Origin: Dehalococcoidia bacterium
GTDB taxonomy: Bacteria; Chloroflexota; Dehalococcoidia; Lucifugimonadales; UBA3495
NCBI GenBank assembly: GCA_965221025.1
Contig: CBDCRJ010000001.1
Location: 388,839 to 452,838, forward strand
Direction: 5' to 3'
DNA: 64,000 nucleotides
In this document: positions 11,888 through 19,497 of the stretch, in pieces
How the letters are laid out: each line of letters opens with the position of its first letter
Numbering within the stretch: position 1 is the stretch's first letter
Notes under the pieces: generated by a model
The model's input: the letters and a program-made list of their open reading frames with translations, nothing else
Told to the model about the DNA's origin: nothing
The model's database searches: none
Program-made: the position numbers and the translations under genes

Positions 11888-12749
11888 ATGTCACACGCCC
11901 GTGAACGGTTTCGGGAGGTCCTCTCCCGTCCTTCCTGCACCCTGGCAGCCAATGTCTTCGACCCTCTGTCGGCCCGGATTGCTCACCTGGTGGGGTACGA
12001 GGTCTGCGTTCTCTCCGGCTCTGTGGGCAAGTCGGCCAGCCTGGGCGTCCCGGACGGCGTCCTTGCCAACATGTCGGACGTGGTGGACCATTGCCGCCGC
12101 ATTACCCGAATCGCAGACGTCAGCCTGATGGTCGACGCCGAAGATGGCTTCGGCAACGCGGTCAATGTGTTCCGGACCGTGCGGGAGATGGAGGCCGCAG
12201 GCGTCGCCGGAATCGAGATTGAGGACAACTTCGTACCCGGACGGTTCAACGTGGCGGAACCCGGACTGGTTTCCACGGAAGAACAGGTGGGGAAGCTGGA
12301 AGCGGCGGTCGCGGCCCGCACCGATCCCACCACCGTCATCGTGGCCCGTTCGGCGGCGTTAGGGGTTATGTCCGCTGGACGAAGCACTCGAACGGGTCCG
12401 GGCCTACTCCCAAACCGGGGCCGAGGCCCTGATGCTCACCGGCGCCGCCAGCCGGGAGCAGATCGAAGCGGTCCATCGGGCGACGCCCCTGCCGCTGTCT
12501 GTGCTGGCCCCGCCAGACGGCACCGCTAGCGACCCGACCTTCCTCGCCGCTAACCATGTGCGGATACTGATGTTGGGTAACCCGACGTTCGCGGTGGCCG
12601 CCAAAGCCATCCACGACACCCTCAAACACCTGAAAGACGGCGGAGCCCTCGAAGACACCACCTCAAACCAAGCCACCCCTGACCTTCTCCGCCAAGTCAA
12701 CGGCGCCGACGAGTACCTGGCCCTGCAGGAGCAATACCTGCGGGAGTAG
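11888..12749 (+). pseudogene. Second isocitrate lyase/PEP mutase family gene, frameshifted
   Basis: Track ORFs 11768..12529 (real ATG at 11888, MSHARERF) and 12432..12749 are the N- and C-terminal parts of one PEP-mutase-like protein (MVDAEDGFGN, GIEIEDN, VIVARS...). The frame changes between 12363 and 12375: ...AALGVMS then LDEALERVRAYSQTGAEALMLTG. Confidence 0.7.
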
Positions 12750-12757
12750 GGGGGCGA

Positions 12758-13297
12758 TCAGGCGAGGTTGGGCGTGACGGTTGTCGTGCTCAAGTCGATC
12801 GCTTCCACCAATTCCTCAACCGCGTGGCAGAGTCGCCTGAAGGAGCGGGAGTTGGCCGAGGCAAGGTCGAGATCGATTCGGGTAGTCAAAGAAGTTTGCT
12901 CCGCCGTTTCGCTATAATGCCGGCCGGGCAAGAAGTCCTTGAGACGGCCTTTGGCGTCTGCGACGGCTTCCGGGTCTCCAGGAAAACTCCCGGCACCCTC
13001 AATTATCGATTCGAGACTGGACAAGAACCAACTCTCATATTCTCTTACCGCGCAAACAACCGCAACCGGAGTCCGCGTGTCCCGGGCGATACACCGGTCT
13101 GCCAATCCCTTCGCCAGATCGCGAGGACACTCATCATCGGAGTCTCGGATTACGAGGATTGCGTCGGGGTTGGATTCCAATGCGTACTCAATAAAGCTCT
13201 CGATTCGCCTCGTCAAATTCCCAGAGCCTTTGGCGCTGACCGTCTTACCGACAACGTAATCGTAGAGTCCCATGCGTTCGTAAAGAAGCCGACGCAA
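12758..13297 (-). CDS. DUF4276-like protein, apparently 5'-truncated
   Basis: 179-aa ORF with ILVIRDSDDE, REYESWFL and a C-terminal ...SANSRSFRRL, which resembles DUF4276 from memory. Only a TTG start at 13297 is available, and the in-frame upstream stop (13313-13315) lies inside the left inverted repeat. The N-terminal EGxxE strand typical of the family is missing. Confidence 0.55.
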   Translation of the reverse strand: MRRLLYERMGLYDYVVGKTVSAKGSGNLTRRIESFIEYALESNPDAILVIRDSDDECPRDLAKGLADRCIARDTRTPVAVVCAVREYESWFLSSLESIIEGAGSFPGDPEAVADAKGRLKDFLPGRHYSETAEQTSLTTRIDLDLASANSRSFRRLCHAVEELVEAIDLSTTTVTPNLA

Positions 13298-13298
13298 C

Positions 13299-13323
13299 GG
13301 TTCCGTTTGCCTTTAGCGTATGC
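13299..13323 (+). repeat. Left terminal inverted repeat
   Basis: Exact 25-nt match to the reverse complement of 17365-17389. Confidence 0.9.
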
Positions 13324-13375
13324 CCTATGGTAGCATCGCGGCGTGATTGAAATCAACGTCCTTTGCGGGTAGACC

Positions 13376-15014
13376 ATGCCGACCCGACTTCTGTACAGCA
13401 ACGATTGCCTGAACGTCCTGAACGACGAGTTGGCCTTGCCCACAGGCTCGGTTGACCTCATCTACCTGGACCCGCCTTTCAACTCCAAAAGCATCTACAA
13501 CCTGCCGTTTGCAGGCAAGGACAAAGACGCCCGGCCTGTCGAGGCATTCAACGACACTTGGACTTGGGGCACCCAAGAGGACGCATTGCTACGGGACCTG
13601 TCCACTGGCCCACAGTCGCGCATCTTGGCCGATATAGTCAGTCTGGCCCAGCGGCTGGACACCCAAAAGTCGGGGGGGGGGGGGACTCGCCCCCTACCTG
13701 CTCAACATGGCGGTGCGGCTACTGGCGATGCGACGGGTGTTGTCGCCGCAGGGATCGATCTACCTTCACTGTGACGACGCGGCCAGCCACTTCCTCAAGC
13801 TGGTGATGGACGCCGTTTTCGGCCAGCAGAATTTCAGAAACGAAATCATCTGGAAGCGCACCAGCGCCCACAACGATGCCCGCCAGGGCAGAGAGCAATA
13901 TGGCCGGGTCCACGATACGTTGCTGTTCTACACCAAGGGCGGCTCGTGGGCTTGGCATCAGATTTACACCGGGTACGACCGGACCTATGTCGAGGCGTTC
14001 TACAAGCACGTTGAACCAGGGACAGGGCGTAGATACCGGCTGGACAATTTGGCCGGGCCTTACGGCGCGGCCAAAGGCAATCCCTACTACGAAGTGATGG
14101 GCGTGAGCCGTTATTGGCGATACAGCCAAGAGCGTATGCAGGAGCTGATTGGCCAAGGCCGGATTGTGCAGACCCGGCCGGGCGCAGTCCCGGCCTACAA
14201 ACGCTACCTAGACGAAATGCCGGGGTTGCCGCTCCAAGACGCATGGACCGATATAGGCCCAATCGCATCACAGGCCAGGGAACGCCTCGGCTACCCGACA
14301 CAGAAGCCGCTTGCCCTGCTGGAGCGCATCATCACGGCCAGTTGCCCCCCCGATGGTCTGGTGTTGGACCCGTTCTGCGGTTGCGGCACGTCGGTACACG
14401 CCGCCGAGAAGCTGGGGCGGAGCTGGGTCGGCATCGACATATCCACCTTTGCGGTCGGCCTGATGCGGGGCCGGATACTGCGAAACTTCGGCCAGTTGAC
14501 CACCGATGACGTGCTGGTGCGCGGCGTTCCGGTCAACGTGGGCGAGGCGGAATCTCTGGCGGAGCGGGACAAGTTCGAGTTCGAGAAGTGGGTATGCGGC
14601 GCGATAGGGGCGGAAGGGATGTTTCACGACCCCGGCACACGAGGGGCGGATGGCGGGGTGGACGGCGTACTGAAGTTCTATCCCTTTCGCATGGGAAAGG
14701 CTCCAAAAGCGGAGTTCGCTATCGTTCAGGTCAAGGGCGGGAGCGTTAGCGCGGACTCGGTGCGGGCTCTCAAGACGACGGTGGACCGCTTTGGTGCCAA
14801 GGCCGGGGTGTTGGTGTGCTTCAACCGCTATATGCGGACAGTGGAAAACCAGCGGGTGAAGGCGACATTCACGGACGATGCAGGGGCCTACCCGGTGATT
14901 CAGGGGTTGAGCGTAGAGGACTTGTTGGGAGACAAGCGCCCGGACCTGCCGCTGTACGGATACCGTCCGCAGGGCGGGCGGGTCAGCAATCAAGCCGAGT
15001 TATTGGCTCGGTAG
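13376..15014 (+). pseudogene. Beta-class N6A/N4C DNA methyltransferase fused to an Mrr-cat-type restriction endonuclease domain, out of frame at a G13 tract
   Basis: Track ORFs 13376..13774 and 13707..15014 are one gene. Motif IV DPPFN is in the first ORF. APYLLNMAVRLLAMRRVLSPQGSIYLHCD and motif I FCGCGTS are in the second. The C-terminus FEFEKWV...GADGGVDGV...IVQVKGG matches the PD-(D/E)xK Mrr-cat pattern. A tract of 12 or 15 G would give one 545-546-aa ORF. Confidence 0.8.
13672..13684 (+). repeat. Homopolymeric G13 tract inside the methyltransferase ORF
   Basis: Counted directly: c + 9 g (13671-13680) + 4 g (13681-13684). Confidence 0.95.
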
Positions 15015-15017
15015 ACA

Positions 15018-15290
15018 ATGGGGTGGGGGATAGAGAATAGAGGGATGAATTGGTGCAGGCTTGTTGGAGCCGTGGTCCTACTATTGGCCCTTGCCATTGC
15101 CATCATCTACGTGGTGGCGCCACTGGTTTTCATCCTGATTCTCATGGTATTGGCGGCAATATGGTCGTTCGTGATAGCTATTGGGGTCTTTGTCTACGGT
15201 AAAGATTTGCCAACATGGGCAAGGCGGTCGGTACTGTTGGTGGGTTTGGGTTTGGCTGCTTTTCTGATGTACGATACCTTTGCCAGATAG
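15018..15290 (+). CDS. Small membrane protein (3 predicted TM helices)
   Basis: 90-aa ORF starting 4 nt after the methyltransferase stop, with three hydrophobic stretches. It overlaps a competing minus-strand 73-codon single-TM ORF (15178..15397), so the call is tentative. Confidence 0.4.
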   Translation: MGWGIENRGMNWCRLVGAVVLLLALAIAIIYVVAPLVFILILMVLAAIWSFVIAIGVFVYGKDLPTWARRSVLLVGLGLAAFLMYDTFAR

Positions 15291-15493
15291 CAACCCATAG
15301 CGCGACAGCAAATCCGCCCATCAACGAGACGATGATGATAAGGATTGTCGCCAACCACCAAGGCGGGACGTAGGGGGCAGGTTCCATTTCAGTCTTTCTT
15401 CCAACGGCCTGAAGTAGTTGGAACATTTTAGCATACCACAGCGAGACCACGGAGCCCCGACGATCTCCATTCAAGAAGAAGGGGGTGGAAGCG

Positions 15494-15724
15494 ATGAGTT
15501 ACACCGATGATGAACTCAAGGAAAAGCGTCTCCGGTATCTCAAGGACTGCAAGCCGAAAGAACTCCGGCAGCTTCGCAAGGACGGCGCCCTGGCCGACGC
15601 CCTGGACCGGCGGGTTGCCCGTTGCCGCCGCCGTGCTGAGGAACTGATGGATAGCGGCACCTTTGAGGGACAAGCCTGGAGTTGGGCCGTCCGTGAAGTG
15701 CTACTTGAGACGGAGGCAGACTGA
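15494..15724 (+). CDS. Hypothetical protein (76 aa, helical, Arg/Glu-rich)
   Basis: ATG at 15494 preceded by GGGGGTGGA. The ORF is packed 37 nt upstream of the next ORF. I did not recognise a family. Confidence 0.45.
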   Translation: MSYTDDELKEKRLRYLKDCKPKELRQLRKDGALADALDRRVARCRRRAEELMDSGTFEGQAWSWAVREVLLETEAD

Positions 15725-15761
15725 GGCGTGGTGGTTACTCTAGTTGGCTTAGTCAACCAAA

Positions 15762-16037
15762 ATGGCTAGGCGTAAGAGCGGCCGCGCAAGCCTGACCGAC
15801 TATGAGTTGGCCTGGGTGGTGCGGGAAGTCGCCAAGCTAACCGACAAGAGTTTCCGCGAGATCGGAGAGGCCCTTGCCAACGATATGTTCGACCACGAAG
15901 ATTCCCTGACGGAGTACGACTACACGTTGGGCATGAATGTCGCGGGAACGCTGGAAACGCTCTGGCCCAGGGAAGGGGAATGGAAGCCCGGGCCGGATGC
16001 GGAACGGGCATTGAACCTGATTCGGCGGGTCTTGTGA
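15762..16037 (+). CDS. Hypothetical protein (91 aa)
   Basis: The ORF ends 19 nt before the transposase start, in an operon-like arrangement. I did not recognise a family. Confidence 0.45.
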   Translation: MARRKSGRASLTDYELAWVVREVAKLTDKSFREIGEALANDMFDHEDSLTEYDYTLGMNVAGTLETLWPREGEWKPGPDAERALNLIRRVL

Positions 16038-16056
16038 GGGGAGGGAAGGGCTGGGT

Positions 16057-17151
16057 ATGACTGAATTCACTAAAACCACGACCATCACTGTCAATTGCCC
16101 TGATTGCGATTCCGACCATGTGGTGAAGATAGGTAAGCAATCGGGCCAGCAACGCTATCGGTGCCGTGGTTGCAACAAAGACTTTCGGGCCAACGGCAAG
16201 GCCAAGGGCCGGCACATGGACGCGGAGCTCATGGGCTCGGCCATCCGGGACTTCTACACGGGTAAAAGTTATAAGCAAATAGCCGAGGGGCTGAAAGAGG
16301 AATACGACCTGGAGAAAGAGCCATCGAAGGCCACGATCTACGAATGGGTAAGGGACTACACCGATCAGGCCGTGGCAGAAATGTCTAACCACAAGGCCAA
16401 GACCGGCGGCCGTTGGGTGGCGGATGAGCTAATGGTGGACGTCGGCGGCCAGAAGGTGTGGCTATGGAACGTCATGGACGCCGAGACCCGCTACATCCTC
16501 GCATCGCACCTAACCCCCAGGCGCGACGCTCAGGCGGCGCGTGTCGTTATACGAAAGGCGGCGCTGGCGGCAGACAAGCCGCCCAAGACCATCACCACCG
16601 ACAAGCTCAGGTCCTACATCCGGCCAATCAAGGACGTTCTGCCGGAGGCCGACCATATCCTGTCGGAAGGCTTGCGGGCGGAGGTCAACAACAACCTTTC
16701 GGAGCGGCTACAGGGAACGTTCCGGGACCGCATCAAGACGCTCCGGGGCATGGACAGTCTCAAGACCGGGCAACGCTACCTTGACGGTTGGGTTCTCACC
16801 TACAACCTTTTCCGGGGCCACGAGAGTTTGCATAACAAGACGCCGGGGTACAAGGCCAAGGTGAACCCGCCGTTCAAGGAATGGGCCGACGTGGTAAAAG
16901 ACGGGGCCGCGTCTCTGCCAGTCAAGACAGCGGAGACGCGGCCAGCCTCACGGTCGCCACGGAAGTCGCCACGGCGTCAAGCCGTCCGCGTGGAACCGCC
17001 CAAGGCCAAGGGAAAAGGCGGAGACGCCGCCGAGTTCAAGCCCCTGCCGCCGGGGATTCTCCGGGCGCTACCCAGGGCGATGCGCCCCAAGGCCGGGGGG
17101 AGAACGTGCAAGCCGAGGGGCAAATCGGCCGTTAGAAGCCGGGTGGCATGA
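16057..17151 (+). CDS. IS6-family-like (IS240-type DDE) transposase with N-terminal zinc ribbon
   Basis: CPDCDS...CRGCN zinc ribbon. The DDE core follows the IS6 pattern: ADELMVDVGG (D), TITTDKLRSY (D), NNNLSERLQGTFRDRIK (E). The C-terminal tail is basic and low-complexity. Confidence 0.75.
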   Translation: MTEFTKTTTITVNCPDCDSDHVVKIGKQSGQQRYRCRGCNKDFRANGKAKGRHMDAELMGSAIRDFYTGKSYKQIAEGLKEEYDLEKEPSKATIYEWVRDYTDQAVAEMSNHKAKTGGRWVADELMVDVGGQKVWLWNVMDAETRYILASHLTPRRDAQAARVVIRKAALAADKPPKTITTDKLRSYIRPIKDVLPEADHILSEGLRAEVNNNLSERLQGTFRDRIKTLRGMDSLKTGQRYLDGWVLTYNLFRGHESLHNKTPGYKAKVNPPFKEWADVVKDGAASLPVKTAETRPASRSPRKSPRRQAVRVEPPKAKGKGGDAAEFKPLPPGILRALPRAMRPKAGGRTCKPRGKSAVRSRVA

Positions 17152-17160
17152 GGAGACAAA

Positions 17161-17340
17161 ATGGAAATCACCTGCGGGGTTTGTGGGGGACAGGTGGTAC
17201 CGGAGCGAAGCGTCCGCTGGCCGGTCGTCGGGTGTTTGTTAGTTCTGTTCTGGCCGCTCGTCCCCTTCTACATCCTGTATGCGTGGCCTCGGAACCGTTG
17301 CCCGGATTGCGGCAGCAACGTGTATCACCGGCCCGCCTAA
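17161..17340 (+). CDS. 59-aa zinc-ribbon/TM mini-protein (below the ORF-track cutoff)
   Basis: Hand translation: MEITCGVCGGQVVPERSVRWPVVGCLLVLFWPLVPFYILYAWPRNRCPDCGSNVYHRPA*. This is CxxC, then one TM helix, then CxxC. It starts 10 nt after the transposase stop. Confidence 0.4.
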   Translation: MEITCGVCGGQVVPERSVRWPVVGCLLVLFWPLVPFYILYAWPRNRCPDCGSNVYHRPA

Positions 17341-17365
17341 ATGGTCTCGCGAGACCATTTAGGCG
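17334..17365. repeat. Perfect 32-bp palindrome abutting the right inverted repeat
   Basis: CGCCTAAATGGTCTCG|CGAGACCATTTAGGCG. The TAA of the mini-ORF (17338-17340) and the TAA of the ATPase (17359-17361, minus strand) each lie in one arm. Confidence 0.9.
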
Positions 17366-18606
17366 CATACGCTAAAGGCAAACGGAACCCTATGAAGTTC
17401 TCCCGGTGTAAAGAGTTTTTTGGTGACCGCATTCCGTTGATCTTCAGCGACCAGTCCGGCAATGGTCCCGCCATCAGTCATTTCGACTGCCCGAATACTG
17501 TTTACAGGTACTAAATCCAGGAAATCCGGGCTGTGGGTAGTGACCAAAAGGGACATTCGCTCTGTCGCGACCTCTCCCATCAACTCCGCTATGTACGCCA
17601 ATGCGCCAGGATGTATGGTGAGTTCCGGTTCCTCGATAACCTTCAGGCCCGGGGCCTGTTGGTAAAGCGCCACCAAAAGGCCCAGAAGACATAGGGTGCC
17701 GTCCGACTCCTGGAATCCCTCTAAAACCAAATCCTTTGCCCTTGGTTTGTCCGGCTCGTGAGTAAACTGGAGATATAAATGACCACCGGCCGATTTTACT
17801 CCGACATTTTTTATCCCTGGTACTACGTGCCCTAGGGCCGCGAGTAGCTCCTTGAAGTCTTCGTCACGTTTCTTAATCATCTCATCGAGGACGGACCCCA
17901 AATTCCCGGCGTCTTCGTTTAGCGGAAAACCCGCCGAAGTCCTTTGAGGCTCCCGTAGGGCGTTCGGAAAGATATGGTAGCGCCGTATTTCACTGAGGAG
18001 TTCTTTCGCTCCAACCAAAGTTTGGCCATACTTCGAAAAACCCTGTCGCCCAATCGCCAGACGAGTCCAAACTGTGATAAGAGGACTCGATAACGCCAAA
18101 TCCGACGCGGGTGTTTTGAACAGTTCCGGTTCCATAACTGAATTCGGTCGCCCAAACAACTCTGGGGACCGCTTCGATACACTTGATACCGAAGGCATTG
18201 TTAGCCGCCCGCCCGTAAATGCCAATGCGGTCCGGTTGGTATCACTTTCTTTCGGTGTGACGGTCATATTTTCGGTTCGAACCCTATGGTCCCCGGTCCC
18301 AGAGAATCGAAGGGAAAATTCATACTCGAATAACGACTCGGGATGATCGATCCCAACTCCTACGGTAACGTCTCCCCGGTCTCTCCGAATTGCAGCACGG
18401 CCCCGGGCCGCCAATGCTGAGTCCAATCCATCCCGAAGCGCATCTGAAATGAACACCAGAATGTCTGCGATGTTGCTTTTTCCAGAGCCGTTCGGTCCCA
18501 CTAACACCGTGAGAGGGGCTAACTCCAACTCGAGGCTCTGGATACTGCGGAAATTCTTCGCCCAGATTTTCGTGATTCTTGGTATCGTTGGCTGTTCCAT
18601 GGTCAC
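17359..18606 (-). CDS. ABC/SMC-like AAA ATPase (AAA_21/AAA_15 type) with a non-native C-terminal end
   Basis: Walker A GPNGSGKSN, Walker B/D-loop VIEEPELTIHP, and TTHSPDF. GC content is visibly lower than in neighbouring genes. The last 8 codons and the stop come from the repeat and palindrome of the inserted element. Confidence 0.8.
   Translation of the reverse strand: MTMEQPTIPRITKIWAKNFRSIQSLELELAPLTVLVGPNGSGKSNIADILVFISDALRDGLDSALAARGRAAIRRDRGDVTVGVGIDHPESLFEYEFSLRFSGTGDHRVRTENMTVTPKESDTNRTALAFTGGRLTMPSVSSVSKRSPELFGRPNSVMEPELFKTPASDLALSSPLITVWTRLAIGRQGFSKYGQTLVGAKELLSEIRRYHIFPNALREPQRTSAGFPLNEDAGNLGSVLDEMIKKRDEDFKELLAALGHVVPGIKNVGVKSAGGHLYLQFTHEPDKPRAKDLVLEGFQESDGTLCLLGLLVALYQQAPGLKVIEEPELTIHPGALAYIAELMGEVATERMSLLVTTHSPDFLDLVPVNSIRAVEMTDGGTIAGLVAEDQRNAVTKKLFTPGELHRVPFAFSVCA
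17365..17389 (-). repeat. Right terminal inverted repeat
   Basis: Exact reverse complement of 13299-13323. It also encodes the last residues (VPFAFSVC) of the ATPase ORF. Confidence 0.9.
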
Positions 18607-18642
18607 GCCTACATGAATTGCCTTGCTATTATCATAGCCCCG

Positions 18643-19497
18643 TCACCCACCCCTCAGGAAGTTCAGTACGTGGGAGGTGTATTCCTCGGGCTTTTCGTAG
18701 GGGACCCAGTGGCCGCAGTTGTTGAGGACGACCAAGCGGGAGTCGGCGATGTTGTTCAGGGCCGCGATGCCGATTTCGAAGACGCACATGCGGTCGTAGC
18801 GGCCCCAGATGACCAGGCTTGGCGCGGTGATGTTGGGCAGGTCGACACCGTGATCGTAAGGCACGCTCACCGACTTGGCGTCGGCTTCGATGTGGTCTCG
18901 GTTGCCGGTGTAGCTGCCGTAGATGTAGTCCACCAGCTCCTCGGTAACCAAGGCGTCGTCATCAATGTGAGTCCGCAGGTAGCGGCGCACATTTTCGCGC
19001 GTTGGGTTGTCTCGCACCTCGCGGGTTACCAAACTGCCCTCCGATGGCCGGTTGCCCATCAGGTATAGATCGCCGCCGGTGCGGATATGACACGCGCCGA
19101 ACACCAGCTTGTTCACCCGCTCCGGTTCCTTCATCGCCAGCACCATCGCGCTCTGCCCGCCTTGGGAGTTGCCCAAAAGGTGGGCCCTGTCGATCCCTAA
19201 CTCGTCCATCAACCCCAAGGCGGTGCGGGCTTGCAGGTTGTGAAGCGGCTCTTCATAGACCACAGGCCCCGTGCGGCCGAAGTTGGGCAGGTCCATCACG
19301 ATGCAGCGAAAATGCTCCGCGAAGGCTGGCAGCACTTTGTGGAAGGTAATCCAGCCAGTGGTGCCCGGCCCGTAGGAATGGAGCATCACCAGCGGGTCCC
19401 CGGCTCCAACGTCGTGGTAGTGAACGGTCATGCCATTCACTAGCGCCGTCTTGCTGGTCGAGCCTTCGGTGAATGCCGCTGCGGTCATGTCGGTCAT
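18643..19497 (-). CDS. Alpha/beta hydrolase, meta-cleavage-product (BphD/MhpC-like) hydrolase type
   Basis: Nucleophile elbow GNSQGG, HG-type oxyanion region MLHSYGPG, C-terminal NNCGHW(V)PYE, 284 aa. Confidence 0.75.
   Translation of the reverse strand: MTDMTAAAFTEGSTSKTALVNGMTVHYHDVGAGDPLVMLHSYGPGTTGWITFHKVLPAFAEHFRCIVMDLPNFGRTGPVVYEEPLHNLQARTALGLMDELGIDRAHLLGNSQGGQSAMVLAMKEPERVNKLVFGACHIRTGGDLYLMGNRPSEGSLVTREVRDNPTRENVRRYLRTHIDDDALVTEELVDYIYGSYTGNRDHIEADAKSVSVPYDHGVDLPNITAPSLVIWGRYDRMCVFEIGIAALNNIADSRLVVLNNCGHWVPYEKPEEYTSHVLNFLRGG

Follow-up and report, generated by a model that had tools for sequence, protein, structure and literature searches.

Gene content and boundaries of the element

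The window analysed in this study is a stretch of 64,000 nucleotides from the genome of a Dehalococcoidia bacterium (Chloroflexota; GenBank assembly GCA_965221025.1, contig CBDCRJ010000001.1). We investigated one segment of it, 13299-17389 (4091 bp, six genes), which is enclosed by perfect 25-bp inverted repeats and carries a methylase-nuclease gene together with an IS6-type transposase gene. The genome that holds the window (G000) is a long-read metagenome-assembled genome (MAG) of 4.44 Mb in two contigs, with 61% G+C. The original prediction, made from the letters of the window without database searches, had proposed a 4.1-kb element at this place. The open reading frames (ORFs) on the plus strand between the repeats were found as it described them, with the methylase-nuclease in two pieces and further products of 90, 79, 91, 364 and 59 amino acids (aa). 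The features are listed in Table 1, in which copy A is the element of the window and copy B is a second copy in the same genome, described below.

Table 1. Features of the element and of the two genes that it interrupts (positions in the window; TM, transmembrane segment).
Feature	Position	Strand	Basis
Interrupted DUF4276 gene (HEC-01B partner)	12758-13297	-	Pfam DUF4276; PADLOC 2.5e-34
Left terminal inverted repeat (IRL), GGTTCCGTTTGCCTTTAGCGTATGC	13299-13323	+	100% complementary to 17365-17389
Subterminal left region with family-conserved motif ATGGTAGCAT (13327-13336)	13324-13359	+	Comparison of copies A and B
DNA methyltransferase (N6_N4, DPPF motif) fused to Mrr_cat nuclease domain	13376-15014	+	Pfam, PADLOC
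G13 homopolymer within the methylase gene	13672-13684	+	Frame analysis by run length
Small membrane-protein ORF, 90 aa	15018-15290	+	ORF list; no Pfam or PADLOC match
54-bp internal block with TAGCATACCAC	15421-15474	+	Conserved between copies A and B
79-aa ORF	15485-15724	+	No family match (Pfam, NCBIfam, PADLOC)
91-aa accessory ORF directly upstream of transposase	15762-16037	+	Conserved in relatives
IS6-family DDE transposase, 364 aa	16057-17151	+	NF033587, Pfam, alignment
CxxC-TM-CxxC mini-ORF, 59 aa	17161-17340	+	ORF list; weak DUF1272 match only
Perfect 32-bp palindrome abutting the right repeat	17334-17365	.	Inverted-repeat search
Right terminal inverted repeat (IRR)	17365-17389	-	Exact reverse complement of IRL
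Interrupted ATPase gene (AAA_21/AAA_15; PADLOC HEC-01A)	17390-18606	-	Pfam; PADLOC 2.2e-69

The sequence and an inverted-repeat search agreed on the two repeats that had been proposed. The 25-bp arms are the sole 100% inverted pair of that length between positions 12000 and 19000, and a perfect inverted repeat of this kind is far beyond chance. The left arm has four exact occurrences in the host genome, which form two inverted pairs, and the reversed control sequence has none. Past the 25 bp, alignment of CCTATGGT on the left with GCCTAAATGGT on the right reproduced the weaker inward similarity noticed earlier. The tip, GGTTCCGTTTG, is common to more than 20 related elements, and the ends begin with GG (GGTTCCGTTTGCCT...), as the original prediction had stated for ends of the IS26 type. 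No 8-bp target duplication was found at 13299-17389, where the flanks GACGCAAC and CTATGAAG differ, again in line with the original prediction.

The transposase belongs to the IS6 family

We examined the family assignment of the 364-aa transposase. It scored 130.9 bits against NCBIfam NF033587, the IS6 equivalog (cut-off 125), and matched Pfam DDE_Tnp_IS240 (3.8e-21, 76.1 bits against a cut-off of 27) as well as Zn_ribbon_InsA, which corroborated the IS6/IS240-type enzyme with a zinc ribbon that had been read from the letters. The protein is built of an N-terminal CxxC...CxxC zinc ribbon, a DD(34)E triad and a basic C-terminal tail. The zinc cysteines C14, C17, C36 and C39 were invariant in an alignment of the transposase, 12 relatives and ISCpe7, and D123, D182 and E216 (spacings 59 and 34) were invariant across 13 Dehalococcoidia transposases and ISCpe7. 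The top annotated match in the plasmid collection was ISCpe7 (29% identity, E 1e-25). More than 1000 homologues were found in metagenome assemblies, nearly all without names, and the closest two (P0002, P0008) bear different cargo.

IS6 elements are usually 0.7-0.9 kb long, with long clades of 1.2-1.7 kb, and have one ORF (PMC7986276, PMC6807381). Their ends start with GG, with the consensus GGTTCTGTTGCAAA (PMC6807381), and they generate 8-bp duplications and form cointegrates (PMC7986276, PMC6807381). The ends GGTTCCGTTTGCCT have GGTTC, G and TT..GC in common with this consensus, contain one extra T and differ in their 3' part. The transposase model, the catalytic triad and the ends all place the element in IS6, whereas it is neither compact nor restricted to a single ORF. 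A length of 4.1 kb was rightly called atypical, since long forms of the family do not exceed 1.7 kb and only one member with a passenger gene is listed (PMC7986276, PMC6807381). The element has its passenger genes inside one end pair, as a transporter IS (tIS) does, and the whole 4.1 kb is an insert by comparison with the locus of another genome, G018. On sequence grounds, we class it as a cargo-carrying (tIS) variant within the ISDsp3-like, zinc-ribbon branch of IS6.

The passenger-carrying member is ISDsp3 from Dehalococcoides sp. BAV1, which is 'solo' in ISfinder (PMC7986276, PMC6807381). Both elements come from the class Dehalococcoidia, with IS6-type transposases of about 320-370 aa, an 8-bp duplication on the side of ISDsp3 and of the relatives described below, and long terminal repeats, imperfect in ISDsp3 (28/36) and here 25 perfect positions with a weak extension. 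The simple relatives found here are 1438-1461 bp long, compared with 1456 bp for ISDsp3, and both have one small extra ORF. However, ISDsp3, which we compared by its description only, is 1.46 kb long, has a single hypothetical passenger gene and reportedly lacks an intact zinc finger, whereas the element of the window is 4.1 kb long with five extra genes, including the restriction-modification enzyme, and has an intact zinc ribbon. The ISCpe7 group (IS6 clade VII/h of Clostridia, with zinc-finger transposases of 340-350 aa) has the architecture of zinc ribbon, helix-turn-helix (HTH) and DDE domain in common with it. ISCpe7-type elements differ in their size of about 1.3 kb and their single ORF, and the ISCpe7 transposase, only 29% identical, has a second zinc module and no basic C-terminal tail. 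IS26 and IS257 resemble the element in their GG-starting ends and its relatives in their 8-bp duplications. They differ in having 0.8 kb and one ORF and in moving cargo only by pseudo-compound transposons with two directly repeated IS copies, whereas the cargo here sits within a single end pair.

Restriction-modification units with inverted repeats and 8-bp duplications are known as isolated cases (Furuta et al. 2010, PMC2853133). In these units, too, restriction-modification genes lie between short inverted repeats; their insertion gave 8-bp duplications, and one Neisseria unit contains a gene with a transposase motif. Their transposase family is unassigned, whereas the transposase here is an intact IS6-family enzyme and the layout is repeated across a whole clade.

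A second copy has the same ends and different cargo

The original prediction had recommended a search for other copies in the same genome. Copy B, of 4041 bp, was found at C2:566870-570910, on a different contig from copy A, with identical 25-bp repeats. Its locus is unrelated to that of copy A and lies between a tRNA-Ala gene and a truncated SDR gene. No target duplication was found in the flanks of copy B, and no pairing of the flanks of the two copies matched when they were compared for duplications swapped by recombination. Tandem SDR paralogues lie beside copy B (L005:1524-2996), the abutting one without its first approximately 124 codons, and the tRNA-Ala(TGC) is 157 bp beyond the other end.

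The two copies share the first 61 bp (92% identity), the 54-bp block at 15421-15474 (94%) and the right 1640 bp, 15750-17389 (95%). The shared right part contains the 91-aa ORF, the transposase gene, the 59-aa ORF, the palindrome and the right repeat. All of its 83 mismatches fall within its first 1108 bp, and the last 532 bp (16858-17389) are identical, although central parts of the copies differ by up to 19% per 100 bp. Identity over the last 532 bp of otherwise diverged copies points to a recent exchange. The cargo of copy A is an N6_N4 methylase-Mrr_cat fusion, and that of copy B is an N6_N4 methylase followed by an HNH domain. Since different cargo lies between shared blocks, it was apparently swapped by recombination between related elements.

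Related elements carry cargo inside one end pair and are flanked by target duplications

Approximately 15 kb around transposase homologues in related Dehalococcoidia genomes were searched for GGTT...AACC inverted pairs. The related elements were 1438-7075 bp long, and all had tips of the GGTT(C/T)CGTTTG type. Unrelated ends around other copies of the transposase gene had been named as an observation that would speak against the predicted element; the ends of the relatives are of the same type. At least 19 related elements, some of them with cargo and 2.5-5.9 kb long, lie between perfect 8-bp duplications, as do two transposase-less elements of the host genome; copies A and B have none. The chance probability per perfect 8-bp match is 1.5e-5. 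The duplication-flanked relatives (length in bp) are L038 (1461), L039 (1461), two elements in L069 (1438 and 1450), L034 (1946), L052 (1983), L047 (2516), L031 (2623), L050 (2716), L051 (2716), L035 (3206), L058 (3372), L054 (3555), L043 (3940), L033 (4008), L037 (4379), L046 (5073), L032 (5662) and L055 (5909). L054 has the duplication TTCCTGGG and contains an intact 489-aa methylase-HNH gene, the 91-aa ORF and the transposase gene inside one end pair. Judged by these features, L054 is the complete element most similar to that of the window.

DNA-methylase or restriction genes are present in more than half of the annotated cargo-bearing relatives, and the cargo is almost always upstream of the transposase gene and co-oriented with it. 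It includes a methylase-HNH gene with an HTH-peptidase M78 gene in L042 (a remnant in L043), methylase-Mrr in L056, a methylase with an AbiGi-like gene and GmrSD_N in L032, an N6_Mtase with a specificity-like subunit in L036 and L046, an 827-aa Eco57I/MmeI-type protein in L037, a GIY-YIG protein in L031, and CAP-domain and trypsin-like proteins between two inverted transposase copies in L055. The 5.9-kb element L055 (CBDBMB010000004.1, 2570-8478) has the perfect 8-bp duplication GGCTGCTG; the IS26 pseudo-compound model would not predict that a compound with inverted IS copies moves as one unit.

Elements of this family without a transposase gene are also found in the host genome. One of 6496 bp at C2:2017621-2024116 (L087:1001-7496) has family ends (GGTTTCGTTTGAAATTG...) and the duplication GGTCGAGG, and encodes a 1793-aa Mrr_cat_2 and ResIII/helicase protein together with a DUF7689 gene. 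By eye, the 1793-aa protein also has methylase-like NPPF and GxGxG motifs. This element was presumably mobilised in trans. Another, of 1386 bp at C2:3013781-3015166, carries a META-domain lipoprotein gene between the flanks GTTACAAT and GTTACAAC, and a third of 711 bp, resembling a miniature inverted-repeat transposable element (MITE), has the duplication CATCCGAC (C2:2975401-2976111). End-to-end stubs of 44 and 70 bp lie at C2:989973-990016 and C2:3032538-3032607.

The element interrupts a candidate defence gene pair

We then compared the locus of copy A with that of G018, where the gene order is the same: a luciferase-like oxidoreductase, an alpha/beta hydrolase, the ATPase, the DUF4276 protein and a PEP-mutase-family gene. 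G018 has an empty site, in which an intact gene for a 411-aa ATPase is followed after 2 nt by an intact 198-aa DUF4276 gene, and the same intact adjacent pair is present in G082. The ATPase of the window aligns to its G018 orthologue up to ...KKLFTPGELHR (residue 406). G018 is 11 residues longer; the window ATPase is without its last approximately 11 residues, and its frame runs 9 codons into the element. The DUF4276 protein of the window aligns to G018 residues 22-198 and is without its first approximately 21 residues, including the conserved VEG motif. Homologues of the ATPase continue with a different C-terminus, so the 25-bp repeat is not part of an intact ATPase gene, a reservation that the original prediction had raised against itself.

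Approximately 101 bp of the junction (11 + 21 codons, a stop and the spacer) are absent in the window by comparison with G018. With it, the ATPase has lost its stop codon and the DUF4276 gene its start codon and the N-terminal VEG motif, and this loss would explain the absence of a target duplication. The original prediction had suggested that the absence would fit an adjacent deletion, and the syntenic empty site lends support to it. It has been reported that intramolecular transposition of IS26 typically yields copies without a duplication beside deletions (PMC7986276). PADLOC assigned the ATPase and DUF4276 genes to the candidate defence system HEC-01; both members are present here, separated and truncated by the element. 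The ATPase and DUF4276 proteins are 46-50% identical to those of G018, and the neighbouring hydrolase and PEP-mutase are by eye far more conserved. The low identity of the pair amid conserved neighbours would suggest that the locus is fixed but that its defence allele evolves fast or was replaced.

The methylase-nuclease gene contains a G-run that determines its frame

The cargo gene of copy A is split in the assembly into 13376-13774 and 13707-15014. Its products matched N6_N4_Mtase (1.1e-33) and Mrr_cat (1.3e-6) in Pfam and MTase_II in PADLOC (7.6e-52), which supports the restriction-modification cargo of the original prediction. A run of 12 or 15 G gives a protein of 545 or 546 aa, respectively, and the G13 of the assembly stops the frame at residue 132. 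Both enzyme domains are present, but only G12 or G15 brings them into one frame; some homologues have an intact fusion. The main cargo is predicted to be a one-polypeptide (type IIC-like) restriction-modification enzyme. In copy B, a C14 run separates the methylase and HNH parts, and C12 or C15 would fuse them into 543-544 aa.

Full-length methylase-Mrr homologues of 520-565 aa with 78-82% identity are common, and the gene calls of homologues fall into two groups, full-length (520-565 aa) and tract-split (about 430 aa). The orthologous site is G17 in L056, out of frame, and G20 in L085, in frame and encoding Gly6; the methylase-Mrr gene of L085 lies directly 3' of a family left end. In other full-length homologues, the loop of the tract contains Gly3 to Gly6 or lacks a Gly run altogether. 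Only 15 runs of at least 10 nt are present in the host genome, of which two lie in the methylase genes of copies A and B. The pattern among homologues fits a putative hypermutable tract, and the G13 run itself is either a frame (phase) switch or a homopolymer miscount of long-read sequencing. No family ends lie near the closest methylase homologue on a long NCBI contig (P0151), which indicates that the methylase-Mrr gene is not exclusively IS-borne.

Genome-wide, there are 13 G/C runs of 13-16 nt. Read as G-runs, 10 of the 13 are preceded by (A)AAA[G/A]TC, and 10 of the 13 are followed by T. Four G-runs outside long ORFs have the common 3' flank TGAACATTTGAGCTA (C2:190498, 210859, 460192 and 2247560).

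Conserved features inside the ends and small ORFs

The subterminal left region terminates in vestigial first codons of a methylase gene of the copy B type. In 13 of 23 elements, a motif, (A/G)TAGCAT(A/C)C, was present at a distance of 30-40 nt inward from the left tip, and the region is possibly an inward promoter. At the other end, a palindrome beside the right repeat was present in every element examined, its structure kept and its sequence not: perfect palindromes of 24-36 bp, each different, lie immediately inside the right repeat in L030, L031, L032, L050, L052, L054, L055, L056 and L058. The palindrome may act as a terminator or a binding site. Terminator-like sites were at background level only, and Rfam gave nothing at E <= 0.1 over 12500-18800.

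The 54-bp block is 94% identical between copies A and B with unrelated DNA on either side. Its 11-mer, TAGCATACCAC, adjoins the left end of L031, and the motif was otherwise seen beside left ends. The block lies 40 bp past a partial tip match at 15380 and may, tentatively, be a vestige of an older left end or of a promoter.

The 91-aa ORF is also present in copy B (95% identity), L052 and L054. It has 19 homologues, several of which share contigs with transposase homologues; from this distribution, it is a conserved companion of this transposase subclade. The AlphaFold model of the 91-aa protein has four helices (pLDDT 79.5), and the protein had no match in Pfam, NCBIfam or PADLOC and no PDB structural match at E <= 0.001. 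The position of the 90-aa membrane ORF is taken by unrelated small membrane ORFs in copy B and other elements. Copy B is without the 79-aa ORF and has a 65-aa membrane ORF in its place. The 59-aa mini-ORF is identical in copy B and was not found in other elements.

Mobility of the element and alternative explanations

These results suggest that 13299-17389 is one mobile IS6-family unit, a transporter IS nearest to ISDsp3 and ISCpe7, with restriction-modification cargo, and we put the probability of this at roughly 85%. The 364-aa transposase would recognise both 25-bp ends and move all that lies between them, generating 8-bp duplications such as those seen in the relatives. By analogy with the family, transposition would probably be replicative and proceed via a cointegrate. 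The genes to the left of the transposase gene, all co-directional with it, are perhaps transcribed from the conserved left-end signal. The G-run would set the frame of the methylase-nuclease, off with G13 and on with G12 or G15, and cargo would be swapped between related elements by recombination. The element would have landed at the ATPase/DUF4276 junction and, with the loss of approximately 101 bp, inactivated the candidate HEC-01 pair. An IS26-style adjacent deletion would yield such a junction loss with no target duplication.

Several observations weigh against this explanation. Neither host copy has a target duplication, and movement as 4-kb units is deduced from the empty site and from the relatives. 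At this locus, G018 is not closely related (46% identity of the ATPase), and the 101-bp loss could predate the insertion. Exact removal of the element leaves an open 585-aa ATPase-DUF4276 fusion frame, which could be due to chance (1 in 3) or to a pre-existing fusion. The host genome and the assemblies with the orthologous tracts are long-read MAGs, in which G13 and C14 may be consensus errors. Furthermore, a strict sigma-70 scan found no promoter.

An unlikely alternative, and the one that survives best, is that the element is a dead, immobile relic with a frameshifted restriction-modification pseudogene and a G-run that has no switching role. As would be expected of a relic, target duplications are absent at both copies, both adjoin truncated genes, and the methylase genes of copy A, copy B and L056 are out of frame in the assemblies. 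However, both transposase genes are intact with all catalytic residues, the ends are perfect, and the exchange of the last 532 bp between the copies appears to be recent. Outside the single run, the methylase gene is open in both halves, at the identity to full-length homologues given above. In each assembly, a change of one base would give an in-frame length, which is expected of switching or of homopolymer miscounting, whereas decay would scatter lesions.

Less probable still is that only the right approximately 2 kb is mobile, with an inner left end at about 15380-15430, the outer left repeat being the relic of a second IS and the restriction-modification segment being trapped and immobile. 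The original prediction had considered such an inner end, from 15390, as the boundary of a 2.0-kb core IS. The sequence in question, GGTTCCATTTCAGTCTTTC, begins at 15380. A free element of the 91-aa ORF and transposase with a target duplication does exist (L052, 1983 bp), and to this extent the idea of a 2.0-kb core holds, elsewhere and not as a boundary within the window. The compound form L055, with its two inverted transposase copies around cargo, would also accord with it, as would the motif typical of left-end regions in the 54-bp block and the match of GGTTCCATTT to the conserved tip in 9 of 10 positions. However, 21% of shuffles gave a match as good as that of GGTTCCATTTCAG at 15380, and copy B does not have it; we rejected this site as an inner end. 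When each element was scanned without gaps for its own 25-mer, internal matches did not rise above the background of 14-16/25, with 16/25 as the best match to the repeat. Furthermore, the entire 4.1 kb is the insert relative to G018, copy B repeats the outer ends and the layout at another locus, and the duplications of cargo-bearing relatives (e.g., L054, L032, L037 and L046) lie outside the outer ends. It is scarcely credible that there is no element at all and that the inverted repeat arose in assembly or by chance: the two copies lie on different contigs, independent assemblies contain more than 20 related elements, and an empty site exists.

Implications for the IS6 family and for Dehalococcoidia

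IS6 has been described as uniformly small and single-gene, with the transport of further genes restricted to pseudo-compound transposons, and a 2021 review lists one member with one passenger gene (PMC7986276). In this study, 1-5 kb of cargo was routinely found within one pair of IS6-type ends, and most of it encoded one-protein restriction-modification enzymes. A minimal transposon is here coupled to a minimal 'selfish' restriction-modification gene; the transposon gives the enzyme mobility, and the enzyme could in turn stabilise or advantage the transposon. The insertion into a candidate defence pair illustrates how mobile elements turn over defence genes in a class that is uncultured and abundant in the environment. 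If the G-run is real, it would mean on/off switching of methylation in Chloroflexota, where phase variation has been little studied. With confidence that is evenly divided, we propose that Dehalococcoidia may harbour a large undescribed IS6-type branch that serves as a dedicated vehicle of single-gene restriction-modification and other defence enzymes, with cargo always upstream and co-directional, cassettes exchanged between resident copies through recombination at their shared ends, hypermutable G/C-run switches, and transposase-less derivatives, such as the 6.5-kb element that encodes the 1793-aa nuclease-helicase protein, mobilised in trans.

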